A DNA stretch of 64,000 bases from Bacteroidales bacterium (GTDB lineage Bacteria > Bacteroidota > Bacteroidia > Bacteroidales > P3). Position numbers and translations under genes: made by a program. Position 1 is the stretch's first letter. Each line of letters starts with the position of its first letter. Below, piece by piece: positions 3,985 to 60,452 of this stretch. The notes beneath the pieces are model-generated. The model was not told the origin of the DNA. It ran no database searches and saw only the letters and a program-made list of their open reading frames with translations. The DNA lies in the NCBI GenBank assembly GCA_031274555.1, contig JAISPZ010000066.1:18020-82019 (forward strand). The letters are read 5' to 3'.

Positions 3985-4700
3985 CGTTGCCACCGAAACC
4001 CGCAGTGGGGCGCGTTAGGGATAGGAGCGGAAATCCTTTTGCCTGCGGTGGGTTTTGGGGTTGTTAGTGCGCGGGGGCGGGGGGACGGCGGGGGAATGGG
4101 TGGCGAGTGGGCGGTATGTCTGTTGATGAGATTGCGACAGGGCGCGGGGCGCAGGCGGACAGGCGGCGAGCAGGGACGTGGGGGCGCGGGGGCGGCGCGA
4201 GAGAGGTGTAGCACTCGTAATTCGTAACTGATAATTCGTAATTGGATAGGGCGTGGGGTGCGTGAGGGATAGAGCGAATATCCTTTTGCCTGCGGTGGGA
4301 TTGAGGATTGTCAGTGGGATAAAGGTGTTGGTGGATTTGGGGCAGGGTGTTGGTTTTTGCGAACCAACGGTGGGATTGAGGATTGTCAGTGGGATAAGGG
4401 TGTTGGTGGATTTGGGGCGGGGTGTTGGTTTTTGCGGACAGGCAAAAGATTATTGCTTCGCAATGAAGTCGCTCTCGCTCGGCATAGTCCGCGCAAGCGC
4501 GTCCTCTGCCCTCGCTTACTCGCGACTTTGCAGCGATAGCCCGACCCTGCTGCGGACAGACGGACGGCGGGCGTAGTCAAGATGTGGTGTAACAGGGCTG
4601 GCGGCTTCAATATTCCTTTTCTGTCCGCAACAGGGGCACGCCCAAATAAGAAACAGGGGCACGCTCAAATAAAACCTTGTCAGTTTTTCACTATCTTTGC
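3985..4700. repeat. Composite GC-rich intergenic repeat region
   Basis: Five parts. (1) A 5' fragment of the GC-rich element (gcgttagggataggagcggaaatcc, 4011-4051). (2) A G-rich tract at 4039-4214. (3) An AATTCGT-like patch near 4215-4245. (4) A 2 x 74-nt tandem unit at 4295-4436. (5) An 83-nt hairpin module at 4448-4530, shared with 19823-19905. Base composition contrasts sharply with the flanking AT-rich DNA. Confidence 0.8.
4692..4699 (+). promoter_or_regulatory. -7 promoter box TATCTTTG
   Basis: Exact TAnnTTTG match, 19 nt upstream of the ATG at 4718. Confidence 0.55.
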
Positions 4701-5856: not shown

Positions 5857-6918
5857 ATGCAGAACGCCCACACACAAGTCAAAACAGACACAAACGTAAA
5901 GGTCGCAACAGTTATTCTCAATTGGAATGGTAAACATTTTTTAGAAAAATTTTTGCCTGTACTTTTATCTTGCAATACACAAGAACGTTCGGAAATTATT
6001 ATTGCCGATAACGCTTCTACCGACGAGTCTGTTTCTTTTCTCAAAAACAATTATCCAAATATTCGCATTATTGAAAACTCTTTTAACGAGGGCTTTGCGG
6101 GTGGGTATAACACTGCGTTAAAGCAAGTCGAAGCTGAATATTATATACTGCTAAATTCCGATATTGAAGTTACTCCTCATTGGATTGAGCCAATTATTGA
6201 AATGATGGATAACGATAAAAAAATTGCTGCTGTCCAACCAAAAATTCTCTCATATTACGAAAAAGAAAAGTTTGAATATGCTGGCGCAGCGGGCGGTTTC
6301 ATCGACTATCTGGGTTATCCCTTTTGCAGGGGCAGAATATTTGCAAACACTGAAAAAGACGAACATCAATACGACAATGTATGCGAAATTTTTTGGGCGA
6401 CAGGTGCTGCAATCTTTGTCAGAGCTGAAGTCTATCACTCGCTCGGCGGATTAGACAGAGATTTTTTTGCACATCAGGAAGAAATTGATTTTTGTTGGAG
6501 AGCAAAAAATAACGGATATAAAATAATGTACTGCCCCAACTCCACTATTTATCATATTGGCGGTGGCACCTTACCTAAAAGCTCCGCAAGAAAAACATAT
6601 CTTAATTTTAGAAATAATTTTGCCCTTTTGTATAAAAATTTACCAAAAAATAAATTTCTAAAAATATTTTTTTTACGTTTTCCACTTGATATTTTAGCTG
6701 CATTTTCTTTTCTTGCAAAAGGCAATTTGGCAGAATTTTTTGCCGTATTTAAGGCGTTTCGCGACTTTCTTAAAATGCGAAATAAAAACAAGAGTAATTG
6801 GAGTTTGCTTGTACGTAAAGACCATTTAGGACAGATATATTTTCGTTCTCTCGTCCTGAAACATTATCTTGGGCGAGTGGATAAATTCAGTCAATTGTCC
6901 ACAAAAAATTTTTCATAA
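5857..6918 (+). CDS. Family 2 glycosyltransferase
   Basis: 353 aa. N-terminal VATVILNWNG...ADNASTDES and LLNSD motifs typical of GT2 (rhamnosyltransferase-like) enzymes. Confidence 0.85.
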   Translation: MQNAHTQVKTDTNVKVATVILNWNGKHFLEKFLPVLLSCNTQERSEIIIADNASTDESVSFLKNNYPNIRIIENSFNEGFAGGYNTALKQVEAEYYILLNSDIEVTPHWIEPIIEMMDNDKKIAAVQPKILSYYEKEKFEYAGAAGGFIDYLGYPFCRGRIFANTEKDEHQYDNVCEIFWATGAAIFVRAEVYHSLGGLDRDFFAHQEEIDFCWRAKNNGYKIMYCPNSTIYHIGGGTLPKSSARKTYLNFRNNFALLYKNLPKNKFLKIFFLRFPLDILAAFSFLAKGNLAEFFAVFKAFRDFLKMRNKNKSNWSLLVRKDHLGQIYFRSLVLKHYLGRVDKFSQLSTKNFS

Positions 6919-6977
6919 ATCCACAGCACTTTTAAAAATCATATTGTAAAAACGGAAATTTGTTCGTTATTTATAGT

Positions 6978-8078
6978 ATGATTTACTCCATAGCCTTTAC
7001 ATTTTTGAAAAGTAAAAATATCTTTTCTAAAAACGAACTGCTCGCGAACATTCAGTCGCCAAAGCTACTATTCACGCTCTCTACGGATGATATGACTGAG
7101 CAGTTAAATCTTAATCCTAAAGTATCTCTTAATATTTTTTCGCAGCGAGATGACTGCTTAAAAAAAGCGCACGAACAGATTGACGAGGCAAGAAAAAGAG
7201 ATGTAAAAATTATTGACAGATATAGTGTCGGCTACCCCACTCTCTTAAAGGAAATTGCAGACGACCCTGTCGTGCTTTATGTGAAGGGTGAGTTAATTCT
7301 CGATAACAGGAAAATGCTAAGTATTGTCGGAACGCGCTGCGCAACGCATTATGGGATAGAACAGACTGCTAAAATCGTAAGTGGACTCGCTACTTCACAC
7401 ATTTGTATTGTGAGCGGACTCGCACTCGGAATAGATACGGAAGCTCATAAAAATGCTATAGACAACGGTCTTCCAACAATTGCCGTACTTGGGAATGGGC
7501 TTGATATGATTTATCCACCGACAAATAAAATTCTCGCTCAAAAAATTTTAGACAGTGGAGGTGCGATAATAAGTGAAATGCCTTTTAATACTCCGATGGG
7601 ACAATGGCTTTTTCCGAGAAGAAACAGGATTATTGCAGGCATGACACACGCAACATTAGTCGTTGAAGCGTCTGTCAGAGGTGGTGCACTTATTACTGCG
7701 GCACGTGCCAACGATTATAACAGGACTGTATTCGCCATTGCGGGTAGAAGTGACGCACCATTTTCTCAAGGGTGCAATGCGTTTATAAAAAACAATAAGG
7801 CTATGCTTATTGAAAATGCAGAGGATATTCTAAATTCTATGGGATGGGACATTTCTACTAAGAACTCAAAACAACATTCTGTCTATGCCTCAAATCTTCC
7901 CGAAAAAGAAATTGAAATACTCGAAATTATAGATGCAGAAAAGCCTTGTTCTCTCGATTTAATTTTTGAAAAAACAAATTTCGCCATTCCTGAAATTTTA
8001 TCCATCCTCACAAAGCTCGAAGTCGGTGGCTTCATAAAAGAAATTCCCGGCTGTATGTATGAGAGTGTCAGGCGTTGA
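6978..8078 (+). CDS. dprA: DNA-processing protein DprA (Smf)
   Basis: Rossmann-like DprA core (IVGTRCATHYG, VSGLALGIDTEAHKNAI, FPRRNRIIAG) plus a C-terminal wHTH-like tail. The ORF track starts at a TTG at 6960; the ATG at 6978 is preferred. Confidence 0.85.
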   Translation: MIYSIAFTFLKSKNIFSKNELLANIQSPKLLFTLSTDDMTEQLNLNPKVSLNIFSQRDDCLKKAHEQIDEARKRDVKIIDRYSVGYPTLLKEIADDPVVLYVKGELILDNRKMLSIVGTRCATHYGIEQTAKIVSGLATSHICIVSGLALGIDTEAHKNAIDNGLPTIAVLGNGLDMIYPPTNKILAQKILDSGGAIISEMPFNTPMGQWLFPRRNRIIAGMTHATLVVEASVRGGALITAARANDYNRTVFAIAGRSDAPFSQGCNAFIKNNKAMLIENAEDILNSMGWDISTKNSKQHSVYASNLPEKEIEILEIIDAEKPCSLDLIFEKTNFAIPEILSILTKLEVGGFIKEIPGCMYESVRR

Positions 8079-8170
8079 AAATGACTTTTATTAAAAAATA
8101 CGACATCTCTCTATAACATTAATATCTTTACTTACAGATTAACATCTGCACTGCATAAACTTTTTTAATT

Positions 8171-8458
8171 AGGATTTAGTGGATCGTAAAAAATTTAACG
8201 TAAATTCGCCTCAATTGTCTGACTGACATACAATATATTTTATGCTGTTTTGAAACGAGCATGGCACAGTTTATTGGCGAGTTCCATACGGTCTATTTAC
8301 AACAACTAATAAACGTATGAAACGAGCATGGCAACCGATGAAAACAAAGCTATCAAATATGGTAATGCCATTCATCACGATCAAGATTTGATATATTTTG
8401 ATTGACAAACCATAGTGTCTATTTTTACGATCCATTTCAACAAAAATCCCCTAAATCG
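8171..8458. repeat. Inverted-repeat-bounded segment between dprA and the CRISPR leader
   Basis: Perfect 13-bp inverted repeat tggatcgtaaaaa (8180-8192) / tttttacgatcca (8422-8434). Additional ggatttag / ctaaatc arms lie outside it. The segment encloses two copies of the GAAACGAGCATGGCA dispersed element. Confidence 0.5.
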
Positions 8459-8536
8459 CTGTATTTTATGGGTAAAGCGCAGTAATATTTTTTTTCATAT
8501 TTAATGGGTGGGAAAAACATACTTCATTATAGAAAT

Positions 8537-8567
8537 TTTGAAATATCCATTATTATTGGTAACTTCG
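8537..8567 (+). promoter_or_regulatory. Candidate pre-crRNA promoter (-33 TTTG, -7 TAACTTCG)
   Basis: TTTG at 8537-8540 and the near-consensus -7 box TAACTTCG at 8560-8567 are separated by 19 nt. The -7 box ends 20 nt upstream of the first repeat. The -7 box has one mismatch (C for T). Confidence 0.35.
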
Positions 8568-8587
8568 CACACCATTTGCGAAATGGG

Positions 8588-9711
8588 AGCTATAAGCTCA
8601 AAAAAATTTCTACTATTGTAGATATTATGGCAACGCGAGATAAAGAATGGAAAGCTATAAGCTCAAAAAAATTTCTACTATTGTAGATGCGAGCCTTGTA
8701 TTGGTATTTTCTTCCAGCTATAAGCTCAAAAAAATTTCTACTATTGTAGATTAAACCAACCAAAAAATCTACTCGTGAAAGCTATAAGCTCAAAAAAATT
8801 TCTACTATTGTAGATATTGTTAAATATGTTATAGTTGCTCGGAGCTATAAGCTCAAAAAAATTTCTACTATTGTAGATCCTTATACTATCGCGAGGTTTT
8901 TTGTTAAAGCTATAAGCTCAAAAAAATTTCTACTATTGTAGATCTGTCGGAGCAAACACAAGAACACGGAGCTATAAGCTCAAAAAAATTTCTACTATTG
9001 TAGATTCATACCCTGCACGGTGAACGACTTTACAGCTATAAGCTCAAAAAAATTTCTACTATTGTAGATGTATAAATCCCAAGAATTAGCGGAACACAGC
9101 TATAAGCTCAAAAAAATTTCTACTATTGTAGATTTTTTCTTTTATATCTTTGCAAATAATTAGCTATAAGCTCAAAAAAATTTCTACTATTGTAGATTCG
9201 GGAAGTACGAAGATAATAACAATCAGCTATAAGCTCAAAAAAATTTCTACTATTGTAGATAGCGTGTCGCATTATCGGCGATAAAGGATAGCTATAAGCT
9301 CAAAAAAATTTCTACTATTGTAGATAGAGCTTTGCCAAAAAGCAAACAAGAGAAGCTATAAGCTCAAAAAAATTTCTACTATTGTAGATCGAGCTTGTTA
9401 AGGTCACTATTTTCGAAGCTATAAGCTCAAAAAAATTTCTACTATTGTAGATATATCAGAATACCGCTTATGCACAATAGAGCTATAAGCTCAAAAAAAT
9501 TTCTACTATTGTAGATGAACGGTGCTTTTACCTGTTCGCCGCCGCAGCTATAAGCTCAAAAAAATTTCTACTATTGTAGATGTTCCAACAGTACGTTTGA
9601 TTTTGAATTAAGCTATAAGCTCAAAAAAATTTCTACTATTGTAGATCAGATGACACAAGCACAATTTAAGGACACAGCTATAAGCTCAAAAAAAATTCTA
9701 CTACCTTAAAT
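8588..9711 (+). CRISPR. Type V-A (Cas12a-type) CRISPR array: 17 identical 36-nt repeats, 1 degenerate terminal repeat, 17 spacers (26-29 nt)
   Basis: Repeat AGCTATAAGCTCAAAAAAATTTCTACTATTGTAGAT. Its 3' end AATTTCTACTATTGTAGAT is the canonical Cas12a crRNA 5' handle (stem TCTAC/GTAGA, loop TATT). Repeat starts: 8588, 8653, 8716, 8780, 8843, 8908, 8970, 9034, 9098, 9162, 9225, 9290, 9354, 9417, 9481, 9546, 9611, and the degenerate copy at 9676. All spacers are unique. The degenerate repeat at the 3' end implies the leader is upstream. Confidence 0.95.
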
Positions 9712-9754
9712 CCGCAAGCCGAAGGTCGCGAGTTCGAGCCTCGTTTACCGCTCA
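9712..9754 (+). pseudogene. tRNA 3' fragment (T-arm plus acceptor 3' strand); no 5' half
   Basis: T-stem gcgag (9728-9732), T-loop ttcgagc, T-stem ctcgt (9740-9744), then the 7-nt acceptor strand ttaccgc. The preceding gcc-gaa-ggt could be a short variable arm. cttaaat (9705-9711) could be read as a UAA anticodon loop (Leu-like), but it overlaps the degenerate CRISPR repeat. Confidence 0.5.
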
Positions 9755-9983
9755 ATAGAACAGATTGAAAATCAATCGAAACCTTACTCAATATTCTTTA
9801 TTTTATTGAGATTTCTTCATTCTTCTACCGACATTATTTCGGAATGTTTTTCGGGAAATAAAGTAAGCGACAGGGTAGCGAAAACTCTTAAAAATTCATA
9901 ATTATTCTAAAAAATTCATAATAATTCTTAACAGAATTGCGTTTTTGCGTTTTTGTTCGTTATTAGGTTAAAAGCAATCTAAT

Positions 9984-10952
9984 ATGCGAAACAAAATTTC
10001 AATATTAAAATCTAAGTTTCTACGCAGCGACATAAGAAATGTCGCTCTGTTTTTATTTTTATTTTTTCTCGTCAGAGGTTATTCTTTGCCATTTAGCAGT
10101 CCACTACTTGATGAGAAAAGCGACTATCTTGTTTCTCTATTACAAGATCCGACACACAAATTTTTTGTAAGCACTAACACTATCCAACAATGGGCATCAA
10201 TAGAGGGACATCCCGCGATATATTCACTACATGCGGAGTATCGTCCACTTCGTGCATTTGGAACTTCACTGCATATCAAACAATATACCGCAGGATTTGA
10301 ACGAGATTTCTCGTGGCAGGCATCCATCAATACATCCTTAAAAGCAAACAGGGAGTATGATATTTTTGCGAGCATAAATGCTGGCGGAAATTATAATTTT
10401 TACGATTTCGACATAAATATTCCTGTCGTTACAGAATACCCTGACTATGCAAACGCCGTGGCAAATAAAGGATATTCTACGTTTATCGGCGCAGGTACAG
10501 GATTCACTTTTCATAATAGACATTCGTCTTTAACATTTCATCTTAAAGGTTTTTATTTGATAAATTCAAAAAAGTTATGGAGAGTAAATTCTTTTATCAG
10601 ATATAAAATATGTCCACGAAAAACTATTGAAAATTCTTTCTATTTCAATAAAATGCCACTGCATTTTCTTTTCACTTTTTCGCAAGCATATAATCCTCTT
10701 TTCAAAAATAAATTCGAGTTTGAATATTCGGTAGAAACTCATTGGTATAGCGTGGGAGTTGCTTGTGGATATATGTCGGGAGTAAAAATCGTCACTCCGT
10801 CTTTAAGATGTAATTTTCATCTGCGCAGTAAAGGACTTTCTTTTGAGTATGTAATGAATTTTACTGCATGGACAAAAAAGCAACTTCCGGGAAAATTAAT
10901 TCATCAAACAGGCATATCATATTTAATTTCAAAAAGCAATGCAAAAAGATAA
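9984..10952 (+). CDS. PorP/SprF-like type IX secretion outer-membrane protein (tentative)
   Basis: 322 aa with an N-terminal hydrophobic segment. The segment QQWASIEGHPAIYSLHAEYRPL...GTSLHIKQYTAGFE resembles the conserved QW-x-G-x-x-G-x-P region of PorP/SprF. Beta-rich composition. Sits next to a type-B-CTD-like gene. Confidence 0.45.
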   Translation: MRNKISILKSKFLRSDIRNVALFLFLFFLVRGYSLPFSSPLLDEKSDYLVSLLQDPTHKFFVSTNTIQQWASIEGHPAIYSLHAEYRPLRAFGTSLHIKQYTAGFERDFSWQASINTSLKANREYDIFASINAGGNYNFYDFDINIPVVTEYPDYANAVANKGYSTFIGAGTGFTFHNRHSSLTFHLKGFYLINSKKLWRVNSFIRYKICPRKTIENSFYFNKMPLHFLFTFSQAYNPLFKNKFEFEYSVETHWYSVGVACGYMSGVKIVTPSLRCNFHLRSKGLSFEYVMNFTAWTKKQLPGKLIHQTGISYLISKSNAKR

Positions 10953-25353: not shown

Positions 25354-25441
25354 GGAAAGTTGGCAGAGTGGTCGATTGCGGCGGTCTTGAAAACCGTTGA
25401 TGTGAAAGCATCCGGGGGTTCGAATCCCTCACTTTCCGCCA
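25354..25441 (+). tRNA. tRNA-Ser (anticodon UGA), class II, CCA encoded
   Basis: Hand fold: acceptor GGAAAGT/ACTTTCC, anticodon stem GCGGT/ACCGT with loop CTTGAAA, 16-nt variable arm, T-arm GGGGG-TTCGAAT-CCCTC, discriminator G plus CCA. Total 88 nt. Confidence 0.93.
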
Positions 25442-30621: not shown

Positions 30622-31533
30622 CTAATGGCGGCTTAAAGGATGAAACCTATCTATCGTTTCTTTCAAATACCTTCTGTCAAGATGGGTATATATTTCGGTA
30701 GTAGTGATAGACTCATGTCCCAGCATATCCTGTACCGCACGCAAATCCGCACCACCCTCTATCAGGTGCGTTGCAAAACTGTGGCGGAACGTATGCGGGC
30801 TAACTGTTTTTTGAATACCTGCCTTTTCGACTAAATCCTTGATAATTATAAACACCATAACACGTGAAAGTGCTGCGCCGCGCCTGTTTAGAAAGACAAT
30901 ATCCTCGTTACCTTTTTTAATGGCGATATGTACACGATCATACTGCAAGTAGTCATCAACTTGCTTTATGGCAGAATTACCTACCGGCACAAGGCGTTCT
31001 TTGTCACCCTTGCCAATAATGCGCACAAAGCCGTCGTTAAAATGCAGCATGGATATTTTCAGCGACACCACTTCCGACACGCGCAGTCCACACGCATACA
31101 TTGTTTCGAGTATTGCACGATTGCGCCTGCCCTCAGGCGTACTCATATCAATCACATCAAGCATTGCTTCAACTTCCCCATAAGTGAGAACGTCAGGCAG
31201 ATGCCGTTTTGTTTTGGGAGCTTCCAATAATTCGACAGGCGAAGCATATATAATTTTTTCAAGCACGAGAAACTTAAAAAAACTTTTTATGCCAGAAAGA
31301 ATTCGTGCCTGTGAAGTTGCAGCAAGCCCTGTATCAAGTAAGGACTTTAGAAACGCTTCAACATCTTTCGTAGAAACTTGGCTAATGGACATACCTGCAG
31401 TGTCCGAAATACCTGTATTTCCAAGAAACGAAAGCAGCATATTCACATCGTGAATATACGCCTCCACGCTCTTTGGCGACAAGTGTTTTTCCAATTGCAG
31501 ATAAGCTTTGTAACCATTTAATAAAGATAACAT
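30622..31533 (-). CDS. xerD: Tyrosine site-specific recombinase, XerD-like
   Basis: 303 aa. N-terminal SAM-like domain and catalytic motifs ACGLRVSE, HTFRHSFATHL, LGHESITTTEIYTH. Confidence 0.85.
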   Translation of the reverse strand: MLSLLNGYKAYLQLEKHLSPKSVEAYIHDVNMLLSFLGNTGISDTAGMSISQVSTKDVEAFLKSLLDTGLAATSQARILSGIKSFFKFLVLEKIIYASPVELLEAPKTKRHLPDVLTYGEVEAMLDVIDMSTPEGRRNRAILETMYACGLRVSEVVSLKISMLHFNDGFVRIIGKGDKERLVPVGNSAIKQVDDYLQYDRVHIAIKKGNEDIVFLNRRGAALSRVMVFIIIKDLVEKAGIQKTVSPHTFRHSFATHLIEGGADLRAVQDMLGHESITTTEIYTHLDRRYLKETIDRFHPLSRH

Positions 31534-48948: not shown

Positions 48949-49284
48949 ATCTCTAAATTCTAAGTTCTACATTCATTTCCCTCGCTCATGCCCGACGTTT
49001 CTTCGGCTTCGGGTTTCTCTCACTCTGTTCGTTTGTACACCTTTTGGTTTCGTGGAAAATTAAGTTTAAAATTTCGCAATGCGAAGAAGCAGCCCACCAT
49101 CTATTAATCTACCTCTCTAAGTTGGCATGAACTACTCCATACTCCTTTTCAGCGATGGTTTACTTCAATTGCTAAATTTTAAATCTTGAATTTTCCGTAC
49201 CCCTGCCTGACGTTTTTTCGGCCTCGGGTTTCTCTCACTCTGTTCGTTATATCCTACGTTTTACATTCTATTTTGCGCTTTGCT

Positions 49285-49398
49285 GCGTTAGGGATTGAGC
49301 GGAAATCCTTTTTTGCGGCGGGGACACGTGGGGTGGGCAAAAAAGATTGGAGTGAAAGCCCGACCCCGCTCCGAGCCTGCGAGGGGCGGGGGAACGCC
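49285..49398 (+). repeat. GC-rich structured dispersed element, compact 114-nt copy
   Basis: gcgttagggattgagcggaaatccttttttgc...gcaaaaaagattggagtgaaagcccgaccccgctc...gaggggcgggggaacgcc. Closing stem GCGTT/AACGC around two internal hairpins. Confidence 0.7.
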
Positions 49399-50788: not shown

Positions 50789-53700
50789 TTATCCGAATAT
50801 CTCTCGCAATTCCTTGTTACTCAACTTCCCAATCCACTTTTCACCGTTGGCAACTGTCATTTCTGCGAGATGTTTTTTCTTTTGTATCATATCATCTATC
50901 CGTTCTTCAAACGTATTTTTGCAGATCATACGATGTACCATAACATTTTTCTTTTGCCCAATGCGGTAGGCGCGGTCTGTCGCCTGGCTTTCGACAGCGG
51001 GATTCCACCACAAATCATAGTGAATGACGTGCGAAGCAGCGGTCAAATTCAGCCCTGTACCACCCGCCTTGAGCGAAAGGATAAAGATTTTGTCTGCGCG
51101 ACCGTTCTGAAACCTGCTCACCATCTCCTCTCGCTGTTTTACACTGCAACCACCGTGATAAAACATCGGTTCTTCACCAAAACGTTCAGCTATAAAACGT
51201 TGTAACAGCCCACCCATTTCTGTGAACTGCGTAAAAATCAACACTTTCTCGCCACTTTCGTTAATACTGTCAAGTAATTCAAGAAGTAATTCTGTTTTCC
51301 CTGAAAGGGATGCTTCAAACTGTCCATCTTTCAAAAATTGCGTGGGATGGTTGCATATTTGTTTCAACGCAAGTATCATCTGCAACACTAAACCCTGCCG
51401 CTTAAACAATGTTTGACTGTCAGAACCCGCACAACCTTCAATTTGCTCCATCGCCTTTTCCATCGTTTTCTGATACAAAGCCACTTGCTGCTTGCCAAGA
51501 GATGCAAATTGAATTTGTTCAATCTTATCGGGTAAATCGGAAATAACAGTTTTGTCCGACTTCATACGCCGCATCATAAAAGGGGCGGTAATTTTCCGAA
51601 ACTTCAAAGCAATATGCTCATCATTGGATATTTGAATTGGCTCTGCGTAACTTTCTTTAAACGTCTTAATATTGCCCAGATAGCCTTTATTGGTGTAATC
51701 CATAATTGACCAAAATTCGGTCAAGCGGTTTTCTACAGGCGTACCGCTCATCGCAATACGAATATTTGCAGGAACACTTTTTACAGCTTTCGACTGCGCA
51801 GTGGTGTGGTTCTTGATATTTTGTGCTTCGTCGATAACCATCACCTGCCATTTTTGCTTTTTTAGTACTTCAAAGTCGCTTCTAAGTACACCGTACGTGG
51901 TGAGTAAAATATCTGCATCAAACTGTTTTAAGTCGCGCGTAGCACCGTGAAAGATATGCGTAGAGAGCGACGGCGCAAATTTCTCGATTTCCGCTTTCCA
52001 ATTTATTAATAATCCTGTCGGAACAACTACCAATGCCTTGTGCTTTTTATCTATAGCATTTTCTTCTTTAAGTTTTAACAGAATGGAAATTACCTGTAAC
52101 GTCTTGCCCAGACCCATATCGTCAGCAATAACACTTCCAAAGCCGATACGACTATTTCTATACATCCACGAGAAACCACGTTGCTGGTATGGACGAAGTT
52201 CCACATTCAAGCCTTTCGGCAACGGAATATCTTCTTCGGAAGTCAGTTCACGAATTAAATCCCGTACCTCATTCGTCAGTGCAACAGGTGCTCCATCGTA
52301 TTCTTCAGCCAACGCCGTCTGCAGTAATTGATAGGAATTAAGCAATTTACCACCTGTAATGGCTTTGTTCAACTTTTCTATGTCAGTATCACTTACGTAA
52401 ATATAATTCTCCTTGAATTTGAACAGTCTCGAAGCATTTTTCATCAACTTCTGAAAGTCTGCAAGTGAAATCACCTTGTTGCCAAGTGCTATCTGCCACT
52501 CGAATGACAATAAATCGTCCAAGCGTAAAAATCCCTGACTGTCGGATGATTTTTTTAGTTTCACAGATACTTTCGGACGTAACAGTTCCTGTAAGGATTT
52601 GGGCAACAGAATTTTGATGTCCAGCAATCTAATTGCGGGAAGTACCTCCATAAGGAAAGAGGCAAACTCTTTATTACTGAAACGAACAGATGTATTTCCC
52701 AAAAGGTTGATATACGTGTCCAAGCCTTTTATAAACGGTGTCAGCAACGACACGCTCTGCAATATTTTAAAACGTTGTTTCTCGTATTTTTTTTGTTCCC
52801 AAATATCTTTTAAGGGGACAGGTGGCTGATTAGCACTTTCTACGCTAATCTGAACTTCAAACTGCCCGTCCTGATTGTCTTGCTTGCCTTGCTTGTCTTG
52901 CTTGTCTTGCTTGTCTTGCCTGTCTGAAGGCTCCGAAACTATGATTACAGGCTTATATAATTCTGTGGTCAGATAATATCTGTCTAACCACACCTTTATA
53001 CCACCACTCAACGCATTTTCACCAACACCTGCAAAATCGTATGATATGCCTTTGAAAAATAACTTTTCAAACAGGTCGTCATTTTTAGATAATTTGGACA
53101 GATGTGCGATTATATTACTGATAAACAACGATAAAATTTCTGTCGCCAAATTGTCGGACACTATTTTTGACAGTTTTTCAACTACTGTTTTCACGTGTTG
53201 ATCCATGCTTGCAGGCAGCCAGCGAATGATGAAACGTTTGTTTTCCAACTGAACAATCTGCGGAATAACCATGCCGTTTGCCAATAAATGAAGTGAAGCA
53301 AACAAAATTTTGTGAAGTGCAGCCACACTTGCATCCATGTCGAGCAAATAGTCTGGGTTTAATGCAAAGAGCGCGGGTATCAACTCATCCAAAGTATATT
53401 CTTCGTTAATGGACAGACGATTGTCTTTATGCAATGTCAAAGAAAGTGTAGATCTGTTCGTTAGAAATTGTTTATCCGTCAGAGGATAAATCGTATCAAG
53501 GTTCAGTTTATTAGATAAAATACTCGAACATTCCTGAGCAATTCTACGCATTTTAGAAGCATATTTTTCGCGAAAATTGCCCGAAGGATAAAAAGGTGGT
53601 GCATCGGGTAAAAGTTGTACTAACGCGTCAAAGACATTTTTCAATTGCGAGAAATCAACTTTTTGATAAGCAGTGTCTTCCGAGTAAGAAATATTTCTTG

Positions 53701-54271
53701 GGGGCTTTATCAGGCTTTCTAACGTGGGGATTTCCGTTTTATTTTGGTCAGCAAGAAAAATATTTCGTTTTTTTAATTCTTCTATTAAGTGAACATTATG
53801 AATATCAAAGACAAAAAACGGATTATTGTCAATTTCGCGGCTCAACATATAAATAACCGCAGCCAAATGTTTGCATGGAACAGCCCAGTCAGGGCACGAG
53901 CATTTCATTTCAAAATCCGTCCATCTCTGGGGAAACACTTTCAGCCCTAATGATTCGGAAATATTAAGAATGGCAGGATCTAATTCGCGATTTAACAATT
54001 TGGAAATAAGCGCAGGATGTTCAATAATTTTATCCAGCAAACTTTCCTTTGAGCTTTCAGAAAAAGTGGGCACAACAATCGTTACGGTGTATGGAGTCAG
54101 ACGGCTTCCAGCGACTTTCGCCACAATTTTATTATCTCTTATCTTTACACTTTTGACACGACCGCCTCGCGCGTACGAAGCCCCTCGCGGCAAACGATTA
54201 TCGTAATCCACACTTCTTAACGAACCTAACCAACGTTCGCCCCACCATGTTTTTCCAAACTTTTCTGCCAT
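50789..54271 (-). CDS. SNF2-family helicase with N-terminal SWIM zinc finger
   Basis: SWIM motif CSCPDWAVPCKHLAAV. Helicase motifs DDMGLGKT, DEAQNIKN, LKAGGTGLNLT, QATDRAYRIGQ. The ATG at 54271 (MAEKFGKTWWGERW) is preferred over the TTG at 54295. Confidence 0.9.
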   Translation of the reverse strand: MAEKFGKTWWGERWLGSLRSVDYDNRLPRGASYARGGRVKSVKIRDNKIVAKVAGSRLTPYTVTIVVPTFSESSKESLLDKIIEHPALISKLLNRELDPAILNISESLGLKVFPQRWTDFEMKCSCPDWAVPCKHLAAVIYMLSREIDNNPFFVFDIHNVHLIEELKKRNIFLADQNKTEIPTLESLIKPPRNISYSEDTAYQKVDFSQLKNVFDALVQLLPDAPPFYPSGNFREKYASKMRRIAQECSSILSNKLNLDTIYPLTDKQFLTNRSTLSLTLHKDNRLSINEEYTLDELIPALFALNPDYLLDMDASVAALHKILFASLHLLANGMVIPQIVQLENKRFIIRWLPASMDQHVKTVVEKLSKIVSDNLATEILSLFISNIIAHLSKLSKNDDLFEKLFFKGISYDFAGVGENALSGGIKVWLDRYYLTTELYKPVIIVSEPSDRQDKQDKQDKQGKQDNQDGQFEVQISVESANQPPVPLKDIWEQKKYEKQRFKILQSVSLLTPFIKGLDTYINLLGNTSVRFSNKEFASFLMEVLPAIRLLDIKILLPKSLQELLRPKVSVKLKKSSDSQGFLRLDDLLSFEWQIALGNKVISLADFQKLMKNASRLFKFKENYIYVSDTDIEKLNKAITGGKLLNSYQLLQTALAEEYDGAPVALTNEVRDLIRELTSEEDIPLPKGLNVELRPYQQRGFSWMYRNSRIGFGSVIADDMGLGKTLQVISILLKLKEENAIDKKHKALVVVPTGLLINWKAEIEKFAPSLSTHIFHGATRDLKQFDADILLTTYGVLRSDFEVLKKQKWQVMVIDEAQNIKNHTTAQSKAVKSVPANIRIAMSGTPVENRLTEFWSIMDYTNKGYLGNIKTFKESYAEPIQISNDEHIALKFRKITAPFMMRRMKSDKTVISDLPDKIEQIQFASLGKQQVALYQKTMEKAMEQIEGCAGSDSQTLFKRQGLVLQMILALKQICNHPTQFLKDGQFEASLSGKTELLLELLDSINESGEKVLIFTQFTEMGGLLQRFIAERFGEEPMFYHGGCSVKQREEMVSRFQNGRADKIFILSLKAGGTGLNLTAASHVIHYDLWWNPAVESQATDRAYRIGQKKNVMVHRMICKNTFEERIDDMIQKKKHLAEMTVANGEKWIGKLSNKELREIFG

Positions 54272-54323
54272 AATACTACTTTGAATGAGGTGCAAATTTA
54301 CATTAAAACTTTCAATTTACACA

Positions 54324-54520
54324 TAAACTCTATAAGAACTTATAAACTTTTTAGCTTATCGAATAAACTCTATAGCTTTTGACTTACGAATAAACTCTAT
54401 AGCTTTTAGCTTATCGAATAAGCTCTATAAGAACTTATAATCTTCTTGACTTACGAATAAACTCTATAGCTTTTGACTTACGAATAAACTCTATAATAAC
54501 TTATAAACTTCTTGACTTCT
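54324..54520. repeat. Tandem 27/39-nt repeats (6 units) upstream of the SNF2 gene
   Basis: Units aaactctata(agaacttata..)gcttttgacttacgaat alternate between long and short forms. Confidence 0.85.
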
Positions 54521-54587
54521 GCGTTGGAGTGCAGGGGTAGAGTTTTTGCCTGTCTGCAAAATATGTTATTTTGAAAATGCAGCGGAA

Positions 54588-55589
54588 TTAAAACTGCGAC
54601 AGAAAGCGTCTGTCGTTTTCGGAAAAGAGGCGCAAATCTTTTACGCCATATTTGAGATTGGCTTGGCGTTCGACACCCATGCCGAAAGCGAAACCGCTGT
54701 ATATCGTGCTGTCTATGTTACAGTTTTCGAGCACAGCAGGATCAACCATGCCACATCCAAGAATTTCTACCCAACCTGTATGTTTGCAAAACGGACAGCC
54801 CTTGCCACCGCACAGCGAACATTCTATATCCATTTCGGCAGACGGTTCTGTAAAGGGGAAATAAGACGGACGAAGTCGGATTTTTGTTTCGCTTCCGAAC
54901 ATCTCTTTTGCGAAATAAAGGAGTGTCTGGCGCAGGTCTGCAAACGAAACATTCTTGTCTATATAAAGTCCCTCAACCTGATGAAAAAAGCAGTGCGCAC
55001 GCGCAGATATTGCTTCGTTGCGATATACTCTACCCGGAAAGATTGCACGAATTGGCGGTTTTTGTTTTTCCATCGTGCGGATTTGTACTGATGAGGTGTG
55101 GGTGCGCAGGGCAATGTCCCCTTCTACAAAAAAAGTGTCCTGCATATCGCGGGCAGGATGATCTGGCGGGAAGTTCAGTGCGGAGAAATTATGCCAATCA
55201 TCTTCAATTTCGGGACCTTCTGCGACAATAAATCCTATACGTGAAAAAATATCTATTATTTCATCGCGCACCTGCCATATTGGATGACGATGTCCCTGCT
55301 CAAAGCCTGTGGGACGAAAAAGATCATCAAATTCTTTTACGTCTGTATTCTGCGTTTCAAATTTTGCCCGTGCATTTTCTATCGTTTCTGATACAGCTTG
55401 TTTCAGCGTATTTAATGACTGTCCTGCTGCACGTTTTTCTTCTGTCGGAACTTGCTTAAACTGTTCAAACAGGTCGCCAAGAATTCCTTTTTTACCGAGA
55501 AGACGGATGCGATAACTTTCCACTTCTTCGGGCGAGGAAAATGAAATGCTTTTTGCCTCTTGCAGTAATGTTTCTATTTTTTGTAACAT
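54588..55589 (-). CDS. pheS: Phenylalanine--tRNA ligase alpha subunit
   Basis: 333 aa. HPARDMQDTF, FPFTEPSAEMD, GFAFGMGVER. Confidence 0.95.
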   Translation of the reverse strand: MLQKIETLLQEAKSISFSSPEEVESYRIRLLGKKGILGDLFEQFKQVPTEEKRAAGQSLNTLKQAVSETIENARAKFETQNTDVKEFDDLFRPTGFEQGHRHPIWQVRDEIIDIFSRIGFIVAEGPEIEDDWHNFSALNFPPDHPARDMQDTFFVEGDIALRTHTSSVQIRTMEKQKPPIRAIFPGRVYRNEAISARAHCFFHQVEGLYIDKNVSFADLRQTLLYFAKEMFGSETKIRLRPSYFPFTEPSAEMDIECSLCGGKGCPFCKHTGWVEILGCGMVDPAVLENCNIDSTIYSGFAFGMGVERQANLKYGVKDLRLFSENDRRFLSQF

Positions 55590-55655
55590 AAAATCTGTGC
55601 TTTTATCCTGTCGCCTGTTGCTTTTATCTTGTCGCCTGTAATAATTGTAACAGGG

Positions 55656-56315
55656 CTATTTTTCGATTTCAATGCTCATGAAAACATTTTTTAGCGGGCG
55701 ACTGTTGCCGTCGGTCTGTGTTTCGGCGATTTTGTCTATCACATCAAGTCCCTCTACAACTTCGCCAAAAACGGTATATTGTCCATCGAGAAATGGCGTT
55801 CCGCCGATAGTTTCGTATGCTTTTTTCGATTCGGGTGTAAACTTAAATCCATACTGTGGACTTTCCATCATGGCAATTTCTTCGGGTAAAACTTTTTTGC
55901 CCTGAACTATATAGAATTGGCAGGCTGACGAGCGTTTTTCATGATTAACGTTATCGCCCATACGTGCTGCGGCAAGCGCACCTTTTTTGTGATAAAATTT
56001 CGGATTAAATTCTGCGGGTATGGTGTAGTCTAAACCGCCTGCACCAAGGCGTTGTCCGTCCGCAGCATTGCGAGAATTAGGGTCGCCACCCTGAACCATA
56101 AAATCTTTTATCACTCGATGAAAGAGCAATTCGCTATAAAAACTGTCCTGTACAAGTTTTAAGAAGTTGTCGCGATGTTGTGGCGTTTCATCGTAGAGTT
56201 TTATTTTCATATCACCCATCGAGGTGTGAATAATAACCATTGGTGTTTTGCTCTGTGAGGAGTTCATACAGGAAAAAGAGATTAAAGTGAGTACTGTTAA
56301 AAGGATTTTTTTCAT
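55656..56315 (-). CDS. Cyclophilin-type peptidyl-prolyl cis-trans isomerase (lipoprotein)
   Basis: FHRVIKDFMVQGGDP and TVFGEVVEGLDVIDKI. The ATG at 56315 gives the lipoprotein signal MKKILLTVLTLISFSC. The TTG at 56378 lies in the promoter box. Confidence 0.9.
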   Translation of the reverse strand: MKKILLTVLTLISFSCMNSSQSKTPMVIIHTSMGDMKIKLYDETPQHRDNFLKLVQDSFYSELLFHRVIKDFMVQGGDPNSRNAADGQRLGAGGLDYTIPAEFNPKFYHKKGALAAARMGDNVNHEKRSSACQFYIVQGKKVLPEEIAMMESPQYGFKFTPESKKAYETIGGTPFLDGQYTVFGEVVEGLDVIDKIAETQTDGNSRPLKNVFMSIEIEK

Positions 56316-56375
56316 ATTATCTGTTTTTTTCGACTTAGTTAGGTTTTTCGGCTTTTCTGTTTTTCGGTTGAACTG

Positions 56376-56383
56376 CAAAGATA
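56376..56383 (-). promoter_or_regulatory. -7 box TATCTTTG (minus strand) upstream of the PPIase
   Basis: Forward sequence caaagata. About 60 nt upstream of the ATG at 56315. Confidence 0.5.
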
Positions 56384-56497
56384 AGCGTTTTTGGGCATAA
56401 TCGGATTACCTTTCAGGGCAAACGCATTAAATTCGCAGGTCATGCCGAAATACATCTACTATATGGCGAATATCAATCAACAAAGCAGAAAGATAGG

Positions 56498-58246
56498 TTA
56501 ATAAAATTCCTGTCCTGTCAAAAATTGTTTGCCAGCCTCTGTAATCACATATTTTTGATTGGAAGCTGTTGGTTTGTCGGGATTGGTTTTCCTAATAAGA
56601 CCAACTGTTTCCAAAGGTTTGAGGTAATTCTGTCGAAATTTCCCCTTATCTCTATAATCAAAAACATCTATTAAATCATCTATCGAAAGAGGTGTGCCTA
56701 AAACAAATAAAATCACAAGTAAATATTGAAGCCTTTTGTTTGGCAACTTGGTGCCTTTTTCGGCTGGACTTGGTGCCAAGTTAGTCAGTTTTTCATTTTG
56801 ATTTAGCCGCTCGTCATTACTATTAAGTTTATTTTCAATAGTATAGTAATTTTCGGGATTGGTCCCTTTTTTACCCAAACTTAGTCGCAACTTAGTGCCA
56901 TTTTTCATCCAACTTGATGTCAAACAGGAAATCTGTTCTTCCCAATTCATAGTATGAAGTTGTCCGTCTATCTCAATATTTTTCAGTGATTCCGACAGTT
57001 TCGGTCTCCATTTTTCGTCTAATTCCAACCACTTAAACCATTCATTGGTAAAGTCTGCCATTGTGTGCCGTACCAATGGAATGACGGTTCGGAACAGAAG
57101 CGCATCAATAAAAATCGGCGTTGCATTTTCGACATAAAACGGCAGATATTTTTTCGTGTTCCTGATACCAGACCCAATTTCGTCCGCCCAACCCAGAGCG
57201 GTAAAAAAACGACGAAGATTTGGATTTTTGGGGTGCGGATTGAAATTCTCCAAATCCATTACGCCGTTAAACCACGGATTGTTCGGGTTCAGTGTTCTGA
57301 CTGCATCTTCCTCAATAATCAATTCGGTTGCAGTACCATCGGTATATTCACGGTGGCAAATAATATTGCTAATTACCTCACGAAAAATCTTATCACGCAA
57401 GTCTATACGCTGGTCGCCTTCCATAAAGAATTTGTCAGGCAAATGCCTGTTTATAAATTCTTTTAGTTGCAAATAAGTATCTATTAAATTGGTGCGTAAA
57501 GTCAAACGGTCGTCCCATCGGTCTTTGTTTCTGATGCGCACCATTGCTTCCACTTTGTAAGCAGGAAGCAGGTTTTGAATAGTCAGGTCTTTGCCAAAAA
57601 GCAGTGCGGCTGCCAAAGTAAAACCCTCTTTGTTTTGTTCGTAATCGTTCCAATACAGTACCGCATCGCGAAGCATCTGCATATTATCAACCGTTAGCCA
57701 CGGGTGATCGTTACGGTTACTTCGGATTAAGTTTCGTGCTTTGTCGAACAGCGATCCGTCCAAGTCCGACATTTTCAGCCCTGGATAGATATGCGTTTCG
57801 GTATAAATCATTCCTTTTTTCAGGAAAAGTCCTCTAATCTTATGCTGATTATTCGTAACATCAATATCTGTTTCGTATTCGCGGATATACACTCTGCTCG
57901 AATGGTCGTGTACTTGTGAACTTGCAGGCACTTGTATGGATACAATAATTTTGCCCTGATACTCAACAGCCGTTGGGTTAAGATACATCACAGGGTTGAT
58001 GTTTTCAATGGAATTAAGCGCAGTGGCAATATTTTTAAGAAATTGCGTTTTGAGTTCGGGTGCAATGCCTGATATTGTGCCATCGTCATCCACACCCAAA
58101 AGAATAATGCCACCATTCGTGTTGGCGAAACTTACAACTGTTTCGTACAACGATTGAGGCACTTTTTCTTTCGCTTTCTTAAATTCAATGGAAACGCCTT
58201 CGCCCTGATTGATAATTTTTTCTATATCGGATATTGTCATATACAT
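56498..58246 (-). CDS. AlbA_2 (Schlafen-like) domain protein with HATPase_c_4-like middle and C-terminal wHTH
   Basis: 582 aa. N-terminus GEGVSIEFKKAKEKVP...VVSFANTNGGIILLGVDDDG is the AlbA_2 signature. This family is usually annotated as putative DNA-binding / RecG-like ATP-binding protein. Confidence 0.8.
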   Translation of the reverse strand: MYMTISDIEKIINQGEGVSIEFKKAKEKVPQSLYETVVSFANTNGGIILLGVDDDGTISGIAPELKTQFLKNIATALNSIENINPVMYLNPTAVEYQGKIIVSIQVPASSQVHDHSSRVYIREYETDIDVTNNQHKIRGLFLKKGMIYTETHIYPGLKMSDLDGSLFDKARNLIRSNRNDHPWLTVDNMQMLRDAVLYWNDYEQNKEGFTLAAALLFGKDLTIQNLLPAYKVEAMVRIRNKDRWDDRLTLRTNLIDTYLQLKEFINRHLPDKFFMEGDQRIDLRDKIFREVISNIICHREYTDGTATELIIEEDAVRTLNPNNPWFNGVMDLENFNPHPKNPNLRRFFTALGWADEIGSGIRNTKKYLPFYVENATPIFIDALLFRTVIPLVRHTMADFTNEWFKWLELDEKWRPKLSESLKNIEIDGQLHTMNWEEQISCLTSSWMKNGTKLRLSLGKKGTNPENYYTIENKLNSNDERLNQNEKLTNLAPSPAEKGTKLPNKRLQYLLVILFVLGTPLSIDDLIDVFDYRDKGKFRQNYLKPLETVGLIRKTNPDKPTASNQKYVITEAGKQFLTGQEFY

Positions 58247-58481
58247 TATTGTTTATGTAGTTTAAAATCAATCTGTAACGATAATTATTTTGCAGGAGAA
58301 ATTGACACAGTGATATCTAATGACCATAGTTAGCGTATCGAAATAATAACTCACTTATTTACAGATGTCTATAAACTAAATTTTGCCAAATCACAAAATA
58401 TTTCAATATATAATTCGCTGATTATATTTCTTGTATGTTTTATAATGCGCTTGCCCTGTATTAATTCACCATTTACAATTA

Positions 58482-59666
58482 TCACTCGCTTATCTTCCAA
58501 TAGCCATTTTTGTCAGCCCCTTTGCGGGAAAGAATACCGAGTGATTTAAGTTTTTTCATATTGTTTTCAGTTGCAGTTGTAGATATGTTGAGCAGTTGTG
58601 CAATTTCTACGATTGTAATAGTTGAATTTAATCGAATAATATCTATTATTTTTGATTGGTTTACACCCAACTTTACACCCAACTTTACACCCAACTTTTT
58701 ATCATTTACACCTGTGTTTACACCGTCTTTTACACTGTCTTTTACACCGTCTTTTACACTGTCTTTTATGTTCGGTTTCTTATCATTTACGTCTGTGTTT
58801 ACACTGTCTTTTACACCCAACTTATTTGTATTCGCAAGGGACATTCCTGCATATTTGACATGTAAAAATCGATTTTTCAACACATTGTTTTCTCCAAGAA
58901 GTAAATTGTCAAAGAAGCAATTAAGATATTCTAATGTTGGCTCTATTCCGTCTGCTTGGTCGCGAAAGTTTGCCCTGACAAGCGCATTGCGGAAATACCA
59001 AGAATGTTCGGCAAACATATCATTTTTCACATCGTATCCGAATGAACGAAGGTATTTTATTGTAAATACTGCTGTTGTCCGCGTATTTCCCTCACCAAAA
59101 GCGTGAATTTGCCATATTCCCGAAATAAATTTTGCAATATGCCTGATTGTTTCTGTTTTTGACAATCCTTTGTAGTTAAACGCTTTTTCTTGCGCAAAAT
59201 CGTAATCAAGTGCCTCTCTTAATTCGTATGCGGGAGAATACAAAACCGTTTTGCCGTCGAGCACCCATTCTGATTTGGTTATATTGTAATCGCGGATTTT
59301 CCCTGCAATTTTCGGTGCAACATCGGAAAATAATCTTCTGTGAATAAAGATTAAATGCACGGGACTAAAAGTAAATGTTTTTTCCGACAAAATAGCGGTT
59401 ATATTTGCAGAAACCCTGTCGGCTTCTTCTGTTCTATCATCCGTATCTGTTTGTCGTGCGGTTTGCGTTTTGTAATAAGCATCAATTCTCTTTTTTACCT
59501 CATCAATGGTAATGTCGCCTTCGATATTTTGCTTTGCCTGTTCAATAAGATAAGTAGAGGGTTTCAGCCCATCGACTTGCTGCAAGCCGATAGCCGTTTG
59601 CCAGATACCTGCTTTTTCTATTTTGTTTGGTTCGCCCTGACGGATATATTCTTCAAAGTCGCTCAT
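58482..59666 (-). CDS. Fic/DOC family protein with C-terminal wHTH
   Basis: 394 aa. Fic motif HAFGEGNTRTT (HxFx[DE]GNxRxx). The low-complexity linker KDSVKDGVKDSVKDGVNTGVNDKKLGVKLGVKLGV precedes an HTH-like tail. Confidence 0.88.
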   Translation of the reverse strand: MSDFEEYIRQGEPNKIEKAGIWQTAIGLQQVDGLKPSTYLIEQAKQNIEGDITIDEVKKRIDAYYKTQTARQTDTDDRTEEADRVSANITAILSEKTFTFSPVHLIFIHRRLFSDVAPKIAGKIRDYNITKSEWVLDGKTVLYSPAYELREALDYDFAQEKAFNYKGLSKTETIRHIAKFISGIWQIHAFGEGNTRTTAVFTIKYLRSFGYDVKNDMFAEHSWYFRNALVRANFRDQADGIEPTLEYLNCFFDNLLLGENNVLKNRFLHVKYAGMSLANTNKLGVKDSVNTDVNDKKPNIKDSVKDGVKDSVKDGVNTGVNDKKLGVKLGVKLGVNQSKIIDIIRLNSTITIVEIAQLLNISTTATENNMKKLKSLGILSRKGADKNGYWKISE

Positions 59667-59687
59667 ATCTTTTGATTCTTAGGTTCT

Positions 59688-59695
59688 CAAATTTA
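59688..59695 (-). promoter_or_regulatory. -7 box TAAATTTG (minus strand) upstream of fic
   Basis: Forward sequence caaattta. 22 nt upstream of the fic ATG (59666). Confidence 0.5.
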
Positions 59696-59699
59696 CGCA

Positions 59700-60452
59700 C
59701 TCCCGCATTTAATCTTCTTTTTATTTACTTCTAAGCCTCTCTTAAATCTCTCTTAAATCTCTCTTAATCCTCTCTTAAATTTCTCTTAAAATTTCAGTGA
59801 TTTACAAATAATTACAATAAATTCTCTCTTAATTCTCTCTTAATTCTCTCTTATTCCTCTCTTATTCCTCTCTTATTCCTCTCTTAAATTTCTCTTAAAA
59901 TTTTAGTGATTTACAAATAATTACAATAAATCCTCTCTTAAATCTCTCTTAATCCTCTCTTAAAATCTCTCTTAATCCTCTCTTAAATTTTTTCTACCTT
60001 ACTTCTACCTTACTTCTATTTTACTTCTAAGTTTCTTCTAAAATTTTATTGATTTACACATAATTACAAATAATTTACTTCTATTTTACTTCTAACTTAC
60101 TTCTATTTTACTTCTAACTTACTTCTATTTTACTTCTAACTTACTTCTATTTTACTTCTAACTTACTTCTATTTTACTTCTATTTTACTTCTAAGTTGTT
60201 TCTAAAATTTTATTGATTTACACATGATTACAAATAATTTACTTCTAACTTACTTCTATTTTACTTCTAACTTACTTCTATTTTACTTCTAACTTACTTC
60301 TATTTTACTTCTAAGTTGTTTCTAAAATTTTATTGATTTACACATGATTACAAATAATTTACTTCTAACTTACTTCTATTTTACTTCTATTTTACTTCTA
60401 ACTTACTTCTATTTTACTTCTATTTTACTTCTATTTTACTTCTATTTTACTT
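59700..60452. repeat. 750-bp higher-order repeat: two families of 11-nt tandem units punctuated by conserved about 45-nt units
   Basis: Left half: (cctctcttaaat-like)n runs separated by 2 copies of tttctcttaaaatttYagtgatttacaaataattacaataaat. Right half: (tacttctattt / tacttctaact)n runs separated by 3 copies of aagttRtttctaaaattttattgatttacacaTRattacaaataattt. The array runs directly into the stop codon of the 555-aa gene. Confidence 0.95.

Follow-up and report, generated by a model that had tools for sequence, protein, structure and literature searches.

The window, by which we mean the whole 64-kb stretch of DNA that was analysed and to which all coordinates refer, carries a CRISPR array between the housekeeping gene dprA and a gene of no assigned family. 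Between dprA and the array lie a short piece of junction DNA, the 3′ end of a cas2 gene and an A+T-rich leader; at the far end of the array a degenerate repeat is followed by part of a tRNA gene (Table 1).

Table 1. Features of the locus in the order in which they lie in the window
Feature	Position	Strand	Description
dprA	6960–8078	+	Pfam DNA_processg_A (4.3e-72) and DprA_WH; housekeeping gene outside the CRISPR module
Junction DNA	8079–8333		255 bp, from the end of dprA (stop at 8078) to the cas2 stub; source unassigned
cas2 3′ stub	8334–8405	+	Last 23 codons (TDENKAIKYGNAIHHDQDLIYFD) and TGA stop; about 68 codons missing at the 5′ end
Leader	8406–8587	+	182 nt, A+T-rich, ends ...AAATGGG before repeat 1
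CRISPR array	8588–9675	+	17 identical 36-nt V-A repeats and 17 unique spacers; crRNA sense is the + strand
Degenerate terminal (18th) repeat	9676–9711	+	31/36 identical; 3′ stem destroyed
3′ part of tRNA-Gly(CCC), anticodon loop to 3′ end	9715–9753	+	No 5′ half; follows closely on the terminal repeat
Gene downstream of the array	9984–10952	+	322 aa; no Pfam, NCBIfam or PADLOC family

A Cas12a-type array of 17 spacers

We confirmed that this is a real 17-spacer CRISPR array of the Cas12a type (V-A). The repeat, AGCTATAAGCTCAAAAAAATTTCTACTATTGTAGAT, is present in 17 copies without a single mismatch, at 8588, 8653 and onwards to the last copy at 9611–9646. The spacers between them are all distinct, measure 26–29 nt and vary widely in composition (GC 0.14 to 0.62), giving a period of 62–65 nt. 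When folded, the 3′ end of the repeat forms the stem-loop UCUAC-UAUU-GUAGA, ((((( .... ))))), which is the Cas12a crRNA handle, and the consensus repeat also forms a small hairpin at its 5′ end, AGCU-AUA-AGCU. The locus thus has what defines a V-A array: a repeat of about 36 nt whose 3′ 19–20 nt read AAUUUCUACU-N3-5-GUAGAU and contain a 5-bp stem-loop, and regularly spaced unique spacers in the range of roughly 26–32 nt. The initial annotation had described 17 perfect 36-nt repeats ending in a Cas12a handle and 17 unique spacers of 26–29 nt, and had typed the array as V-A without neighbouring cas genes. Our recount of repeats and spacers and the fold of the repeat agree with the description, and the fold of the handle and the domain scans reported below agree with the typing.

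The orientation of the array follows from the handle, ...UCUACUAUUGUAGAU, which lies 5′ of each spacer, from the position of cas2 and the leader upstream, and from the degenerate repeat at the far end. This terminal repeat cannot form the Cas12a handle because its 3′ stem has been lost. Within the 64-kb window we found neither the reverse complement of the repeat nor a second array built from it.

Among GTDB species-representative genomes the 22-mer AAAAATTTCTACTATTGTAGAT was found at 39 loci. A Cas2 ORF lies next to the array in 19 of the 39, and Cas12a was confirmed by Pfam in two, L033 and L004. The 5′ half of the repeat is the same in none of the 39 handle-sharing loci, L015 coming closest with 32/36 positions. 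Since the window's own repeat was not returned from this collection, we judge its genome to lie outside the GTDB representatives. The exact repeat was also absent from IMG/VR and from JGI metagenome contigs, the latter having been searched with a degenerate pattern as well. A comparison of the spacers with phages and plasmids, proposed in the initial annotation, was carried out and gave no credible protospacer, that is, no match above chance (E ≥ 2), and the 22-nt prefixes of spacers 1, 2, 3, 4, 7 and 11 were absent from IMG/VR.

The cas2 remnant, the leader and the junction with dprA

The 39 V-A loci yielded 962 ORFs of 60 aa or more, all of which were compared with the window by tblastn. Outside the array only one place was matched repeatedly, 8334–8402 (+). 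It was matched by the C-termini of Cas2 proteins from a Paludibacter MAG (L028; E 1.2e-7, 17/22 aa, 77% identity), a Muribaculaceae MAG (L004; E 1.3e-4) and a Rikenellaceae MAG (L033; E 6.8e-4). Once corrected for 962 queries, the value for L028 becomes about 1e-4. All three ORFs lie directly upstream of V-A arrays. Those of L004 and L033 are Cas2 by Pfam PF09827 (CRISPR_Cas2; 8.5e-12 and 3.5e-11 respectively), and that of L028 was recovered by a V-A Cas2 HMM at 1.1e-21.

A profile of 19 V-A Cas2 proteins gave its top match in a six-frame scan of the 64 kb at the same place, 8337–8399, where it aligns with positions 79–99 of 99 only. The translation of the stub ends ...KAIKYGNAIHHDQDLIYFD*, and its stop codon aligns with the Cas2 stops. 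The stub and the array are on one strand, with 182 nt between the stub and repeat 1. Nucleotide identity between the stub and cas2 of distant taxa is 75–78% (78% over 59 nt to the cas2 3′ end of L004, blastn), and this similarity ends abruptly at about 8334, which fits a breakpoint and not gradual decay. At the level of sequence, these alignments show a DNA breakpoint inside cas2, at about codon 68 of approximately 91. The initial annotation had stated that there is no cas2 here; this holds for an intact gene, but the stub had been overlooked. We also considered a full-length, decayed cas2 in 8133–8405 and ruled it out, as no frame upstream of 8337 gives a match to the Cas2 profile.

The cas2 stop lies 182 nt from repeat 1 here; in L033 the two are 202 nt apart and in L004 192 nt, and GG or GGG before repeat 1 ends many V-A leaders. 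No exact copy of the Bacteroidota −7 box TAnnTTTG occurs in the leader. A promoter scan gave sigma-70-type matches that were not above shuffle expectation, under a model that is not applicable to Bacteroidota.

On the other side of the breakpoint, the Cas2 profile matched the 255 bp of junction DNA in no frame, and blastn against the 39 V-A loci gave no match. The junction contains a perfect 16-nt direct repeat, TGAAACGAGCATGGCA, at 8251–8266 and 8318–8333, the second copy of which ends directly before the first base with homology to cas2. The stub is also bracketed by a perfect 13-nt inverted repeat (8180–8192 and 8422–8434). Both the direct and the inverted repeat are improbable by chance in 700 bp. 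So odd a duplication exactly at the junction, in a contig that comes from a MAG, might point to an artefact of assembly or binning, or to strain heterogeneity, such that cas-bearing and cas-less strains were joined inside cas2 and the real locus is intact. We regard this as very unlikely. A 16-nt repeat is shorter than the k-mers usually used in assembly, the contig is long (119 kb) with flanks made up of coherent chromosomal genes, and there is an independent scar at the far end of the array.

The scans of the remainder of the window uncovered no intact cas gene among 48 ORFs, a scope that takes in 8.5 kb upstream and 54 kb downstream of the array. The 962 ORFs likewise revealed no trace of cas12a, cas4 or cas1 in any of the six frames by tblastn. 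RuvC_1, REC1, NUC and Cpf1 domains occur in no ORF of the window, so that the adjacent cas12a of a complete system is missing, and upstream of the leader, the place of cas4-cas1-cas2, only the last 23 cas2 codons are left. One Cas12a match in the tblastn search (E 0.043) was spurious and lay inside an HlyD-family gene. Three large ORFs were considered as hidden Cas12a proteins and rejected: that of 1611 aa is a surface protein with F5/8 type C domains, that of 1147 aa is T9SS-sorted with CARDB and MAM domains, and that of 1168 aa is an SNF2 helicase.

What the Pfam, NCBIfam and PADLOC scans of the 48 ORFs did identify were housekeeping genes, T9SS and surface genes and a few defence-like genes. 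The housekeeping set comprises DnaB, an M23 peptidase, a DUF362 Fe-S protein, a GT2 glycosyltransferase, DprA, Rho, a 2-oxoacid:ferredoxin oxidoreductase, LysRS, PheRS, a XerC/D-like recombinase and FolB; the window also holds T9SS-sorted surface proteins, an ABC/HlyD/TolC efflux set and the SNF2 helicase. The window is ordinary chromosome. Of the two flanking genes named in the initial annotation, dprA was correctly assigned, as its Pfam match attests (Table 1), whereas no profile supports the reading of the downstream gene as PorP/SprF-like: it matched neither that family nor any other (Pfam at E ≤ 0.1, NCBIfam at E ≤ 1). DprA is 100% identical to NCBI MDR1973934.1, encoded on a contig of 119,412 bp in an uncultured Bacteroidales MAG. 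The next DprA is only 65% identical, and the lineage is poorly sampled; this nearest DprA is encoded on a 3.2-kb contig with a glycosyltransferase gene, dprA and a convergent semialdehyde-dehydrogenase gene, which carries no CRISPR and is uninformative as to synteny. A CHU_C T9SS sorting domain is encoded by the gene after the one at 9984–10952. Two tandem 20-nt units at 9886–9925, TCTTAAAAATTCATAATTAT and TCTAAAAAATTCATAATAAT, precede the start codon at 9984 by about 60 nt and may be regulatory.

The tRNA-Gly(CCC) fragment beyond the array

The 39 nt at 9715–9753 are 97.4% identical to an intact tRNA-Gly(ccc) of Bacteroides finegoldii; truncated at the 5′ side, the piece scores only 13.2 bits with Rfam. 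An assignment of the fragment (9712–9760) to tRNA-Leu or tRNA-Ser was ruled out, as it is tRNA-Gly(CCC). The tRNA-Ser at 25354 in the window is unrelated to the fragment. Like the cas2 stub, the tRNA-Gly piece had been overlooked in the initial annotation.

The exact 26-mer TCGCGAGTTCGAGCCTCGTTTACCGC was found in 11 IMG/VR contigs, to which the tRNA piece is 92% identical (12/12 rows). In at least 6 of the 11 contigs, a tRNA 3′ piece of about 50 nt stands at the extreme end of the locus as retrieved. A shared A+T-rich stretch (TAATTATAAAC...TTTTAAAG), which is taken to be phage DNA, precedes the tRNA piece in 9 of the 11, and there the piece runs from the anticodon stem to the 3′ end. Loci that continue past the tRNA (e.g. 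L043 and L047) then have the hairpin that also follows the intact tRNA-Gly of B. finegoldii. Judged from sequence, the viral-contig arrangement is in all probability the attR configuration of elements that integrate into tRNA-Gly(CCC), and 9715–9753 looks like an attR-type scar. Because the fragment is on the + strand and has no 5′ half, the integrated element would have lain to its left, which places the array on the element side. More generally, the tRNA-Gly(CCC) gene of Bacteroidales looks like a recurrent site of prophage integration (L041–L051 from IMG/VR, and L052 at 5966–6039).

The 64-kb window contains neither an intact tRNA-Gly nor the 5′ half of one, and the fragment occurs in it only once. 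There is no attL, and no integrase gene adjoins the scar. The suggestion of an island draws on a single att-like scar; the sole integrase-family gene of the window, with XerC/D-like domains, lies 21 kb away at 30622–31533. A genomic island or prophage integrated at a tRNA gene would have the intact tRNA at one end, with a tyrosine integrase gene beside it, and at the other end a second copy, in direct orientation, of the 3′ part of the tRNA; what we find here is the 3′ fragment only. This fragment fits a remnant left after deletion and is in itself no demonstration of an island.

Probable deletion of the cas genes and the fate of the array

The Rikenellaceae locus L033 (CAYJIL010000044.1) shows the canonical order: cas12a (1215 aa), cas4, cas1, cas2, leader and array. 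The locus described here resembles it in its 36-nt repeat ending in AAUUUCUACUAUUGUAGAU, in spacers under 30 nt, in the small hairpin at the 5′ end of the repeat (AGCUAUAAGCU here, GUCUAUAAGAC in L033), in having cas2, a leader of about 200 nt and the array on one strand, and in the motif KYGNAIH(R/H)D at the C-terminus of Cas2. Unlike L033, the window lacks cas12a, cas4 and cas1, as well as about 68 codons at the start of cas2. Nothing of the module upstream of the breakpoint is left at this locus, where DNA from the dprA side is joined to the last 23 cas2 codons, while the leader and the 17-spacer array are intact.

A truncated cas2 that is still fused to a leader of intact length argues that the cas operon was removed from a complete locus. 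We therefore think it likely that the locus is the stump of a canonical V-A module, cas12a-cas4-cas1-cas2-leader-array, whose cas genes were deleted. On this reading the locus is an unremarkable leftover of a standard system, and does not stand for a system of a new kind. As the distal end of the array abuts the attR-type 3′ tRNA fragment, we propose, with moderate confidence, that an element which used the tRNA-Gly(CCC) gene as its integration site brought the module in. A later deletion would have taken the attL/tRNA side through cas12a to the middle of cas2.

Cas1–Cas2, together with Cas4, insert new spacers at the leader end of an array. With these adaptation genes lost, the array can no longer acquire spacers. 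Cas12a is the sole effector of a V-A system and alone cuts the pre-crRNA upstream of the repeat stem-loop. From this established biology of Cas12a, we would expect that, unless a compatible Cas12a is encoded elsewhere, the transcript of the array is neither processed nor used.

The array could, however, be used in trans, if a rearrangement (an inversion or translocation with its breakpoint in cas2) moved cas12a away or if there is a second compatible V-A locus. It would then act as an interference-only memory bank, with no growth from the adaptation genes of its own leader. The 17 identical repeats, the leader of normal length and the intact handle speak for such use, and Cas12a needs only a crRNA. 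Against it, the adaptation gene that belonged to the array is plainly truncated beside it, and the window holds neither an intact cas gene on either side nor a second array with this repeat. We find use in trans rather improbable. The more particular idea that the array is alive as a fixed memory of 17 spacers, read by a Cas12a-family effector elsewhere in the genome (a cas12a that has moved, or another locus of V-A or Cas12a2-like type that has the handle in common), also seems to us unlikely.

The initial annotation had offered three explanations for the missing genes, namely that they are encoded at a distance, that they were deleted, or that something not yet recognized uses the array. The cas2 stub supports deletion and largely answers the question, and the finding is a further instance of a known phenomenon; an unrecognized user is without support, the neighbours being surface/T9SS and housekeeping genes. 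It had also been argued that perfect repeats speak against long decay. This is reasonable: the 612 nt of repeat contain no substitution and the 23 stub codons are free of stops and frameshifts, which suggests that the loss is not ancient and that the relic has not yet eroded. Given so few positions the argument is nevertheless weak and its power low.

L004 (Muribaculaceae MAG JAVWYO010000130.1) is likewise a V-A locus of Bacteroidales in the course of losing its genes, and the 3′ end of its cas2 closely resembles the stub. In L004 cas12a and cas2 remain, but cas4 and the 5′ portion of cas1 have gone, whereas the window has lost everything upstream of about codon 68 of cas2; such erosion therefore recurs in Bacteroidales. 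The truncated cas1 of L004 (596–1252, − strand) encodes 218 aa that cover positions 131–281 of the Cas1 profile.

In complete genomes, 23% of CRISPRs are separated by over 20 kb from the nearest cas cluster (distant) and 12% occur where the genome has no such cluster (orphan), and most distant arrays match a cas subtype that is present in trans (Bernheim et al., 2020; PMC7145637). The array described here is likewise typable with no cas cluster nearby, but with 17–18 repeats it is longer than the averages of 8 (orphan) and 13 (distant) reported there (PMC7145637), and the scar of the lost operon is still visible. Measured against the 20-kb limit, the array has 54 kb of cas-free DNA downstream, and 8.5 kb were read upstream. 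Shmakov et al. reportedly compiled a catalogue of isolated CRISPR arrays in CRISPR J in 2020.

Degeneration of CRISPR-Cas loci and orphan arrays left after cas loss are documented (PMC8616872). One example is given by the orphan I-F (CRISPR4) arrays of E. coli, where the whole set of I-F cas genes has disappeared (Almendros et al., 2016, via PMC8616872). The E. coli arrays, like the one studied here, outlive the deletion of their cognate cas genes; they differ from it in being of another type, short and equipped with anti-cas spacers, none of which is detectable here in a comparison of low power. This precedent (PMC8616872) and the defence-like genes at 50–62 kb of the window could be taken to favour a non-canonical role, with the array serving an unrecognized effector, acting as a regulatory RNA, or blocking re-acquisition of V-A genes as an 'anti-cas' array. 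We give very little credence to such a role. The spacers match the 64-kb window and the cas genes of the 39 V-A loci only by chance 12–18-mers, a comparison of low power as it draws on cas genes other than the cognate ones of this array, and the neighbouring genes encode surface/T9SS proteins without nuclease or RNA-binding domains.

As a relic left by deletion, the locus offers a clean, datable snapshot of how CRISPR-Cas of class 2 can die: cas2 is broken, the leader and array are untouched, and an att-like tRNA scar marks the far end. It calls for no new mechanism unless a trans-acting effector is found. It is also a caution for automated calls of 'orphan arrays', in which cas pseudogene stubs should be checked for, and it adds to the hints that V-A modules are carried by elements which target tRNA genes.

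Elsewhere in the window, an intergenic region of about 700 bp (3985–4700) is G-rich, with a GC content of 0.60 (window mean 0.40) and a GC skew of +0.53. It contains direct repeats: a 72-nt unit at 4293–4364 and 4368–4439 (96%), a 45-nt pair at 4025–4069 and 4272–4316, and a 21-nt pair at 4629–4672; it has no match in Rfam at E ≤ 1. A Flavo-1 sRNA (Rfam RF01705, 45.8 bits) lies at 49277–49369 (+) between the TolC-like and the HlyD/ABC efflux genes. The defence-like cluster extends over 50789–62120 on the − strand and includes an SNF2/SWIM/DUF3670 helicase with ZorD/DpdE-like PADLOC matches. Two Schlafen AlbA_2-type proteins of the cluster (56498–58246 and 60453–62120) are both weak matches to a pAgo model, and a Fic/DOC-HTH protein in the cluster matches the candidate system PDC-S72 at 1.6e-134.
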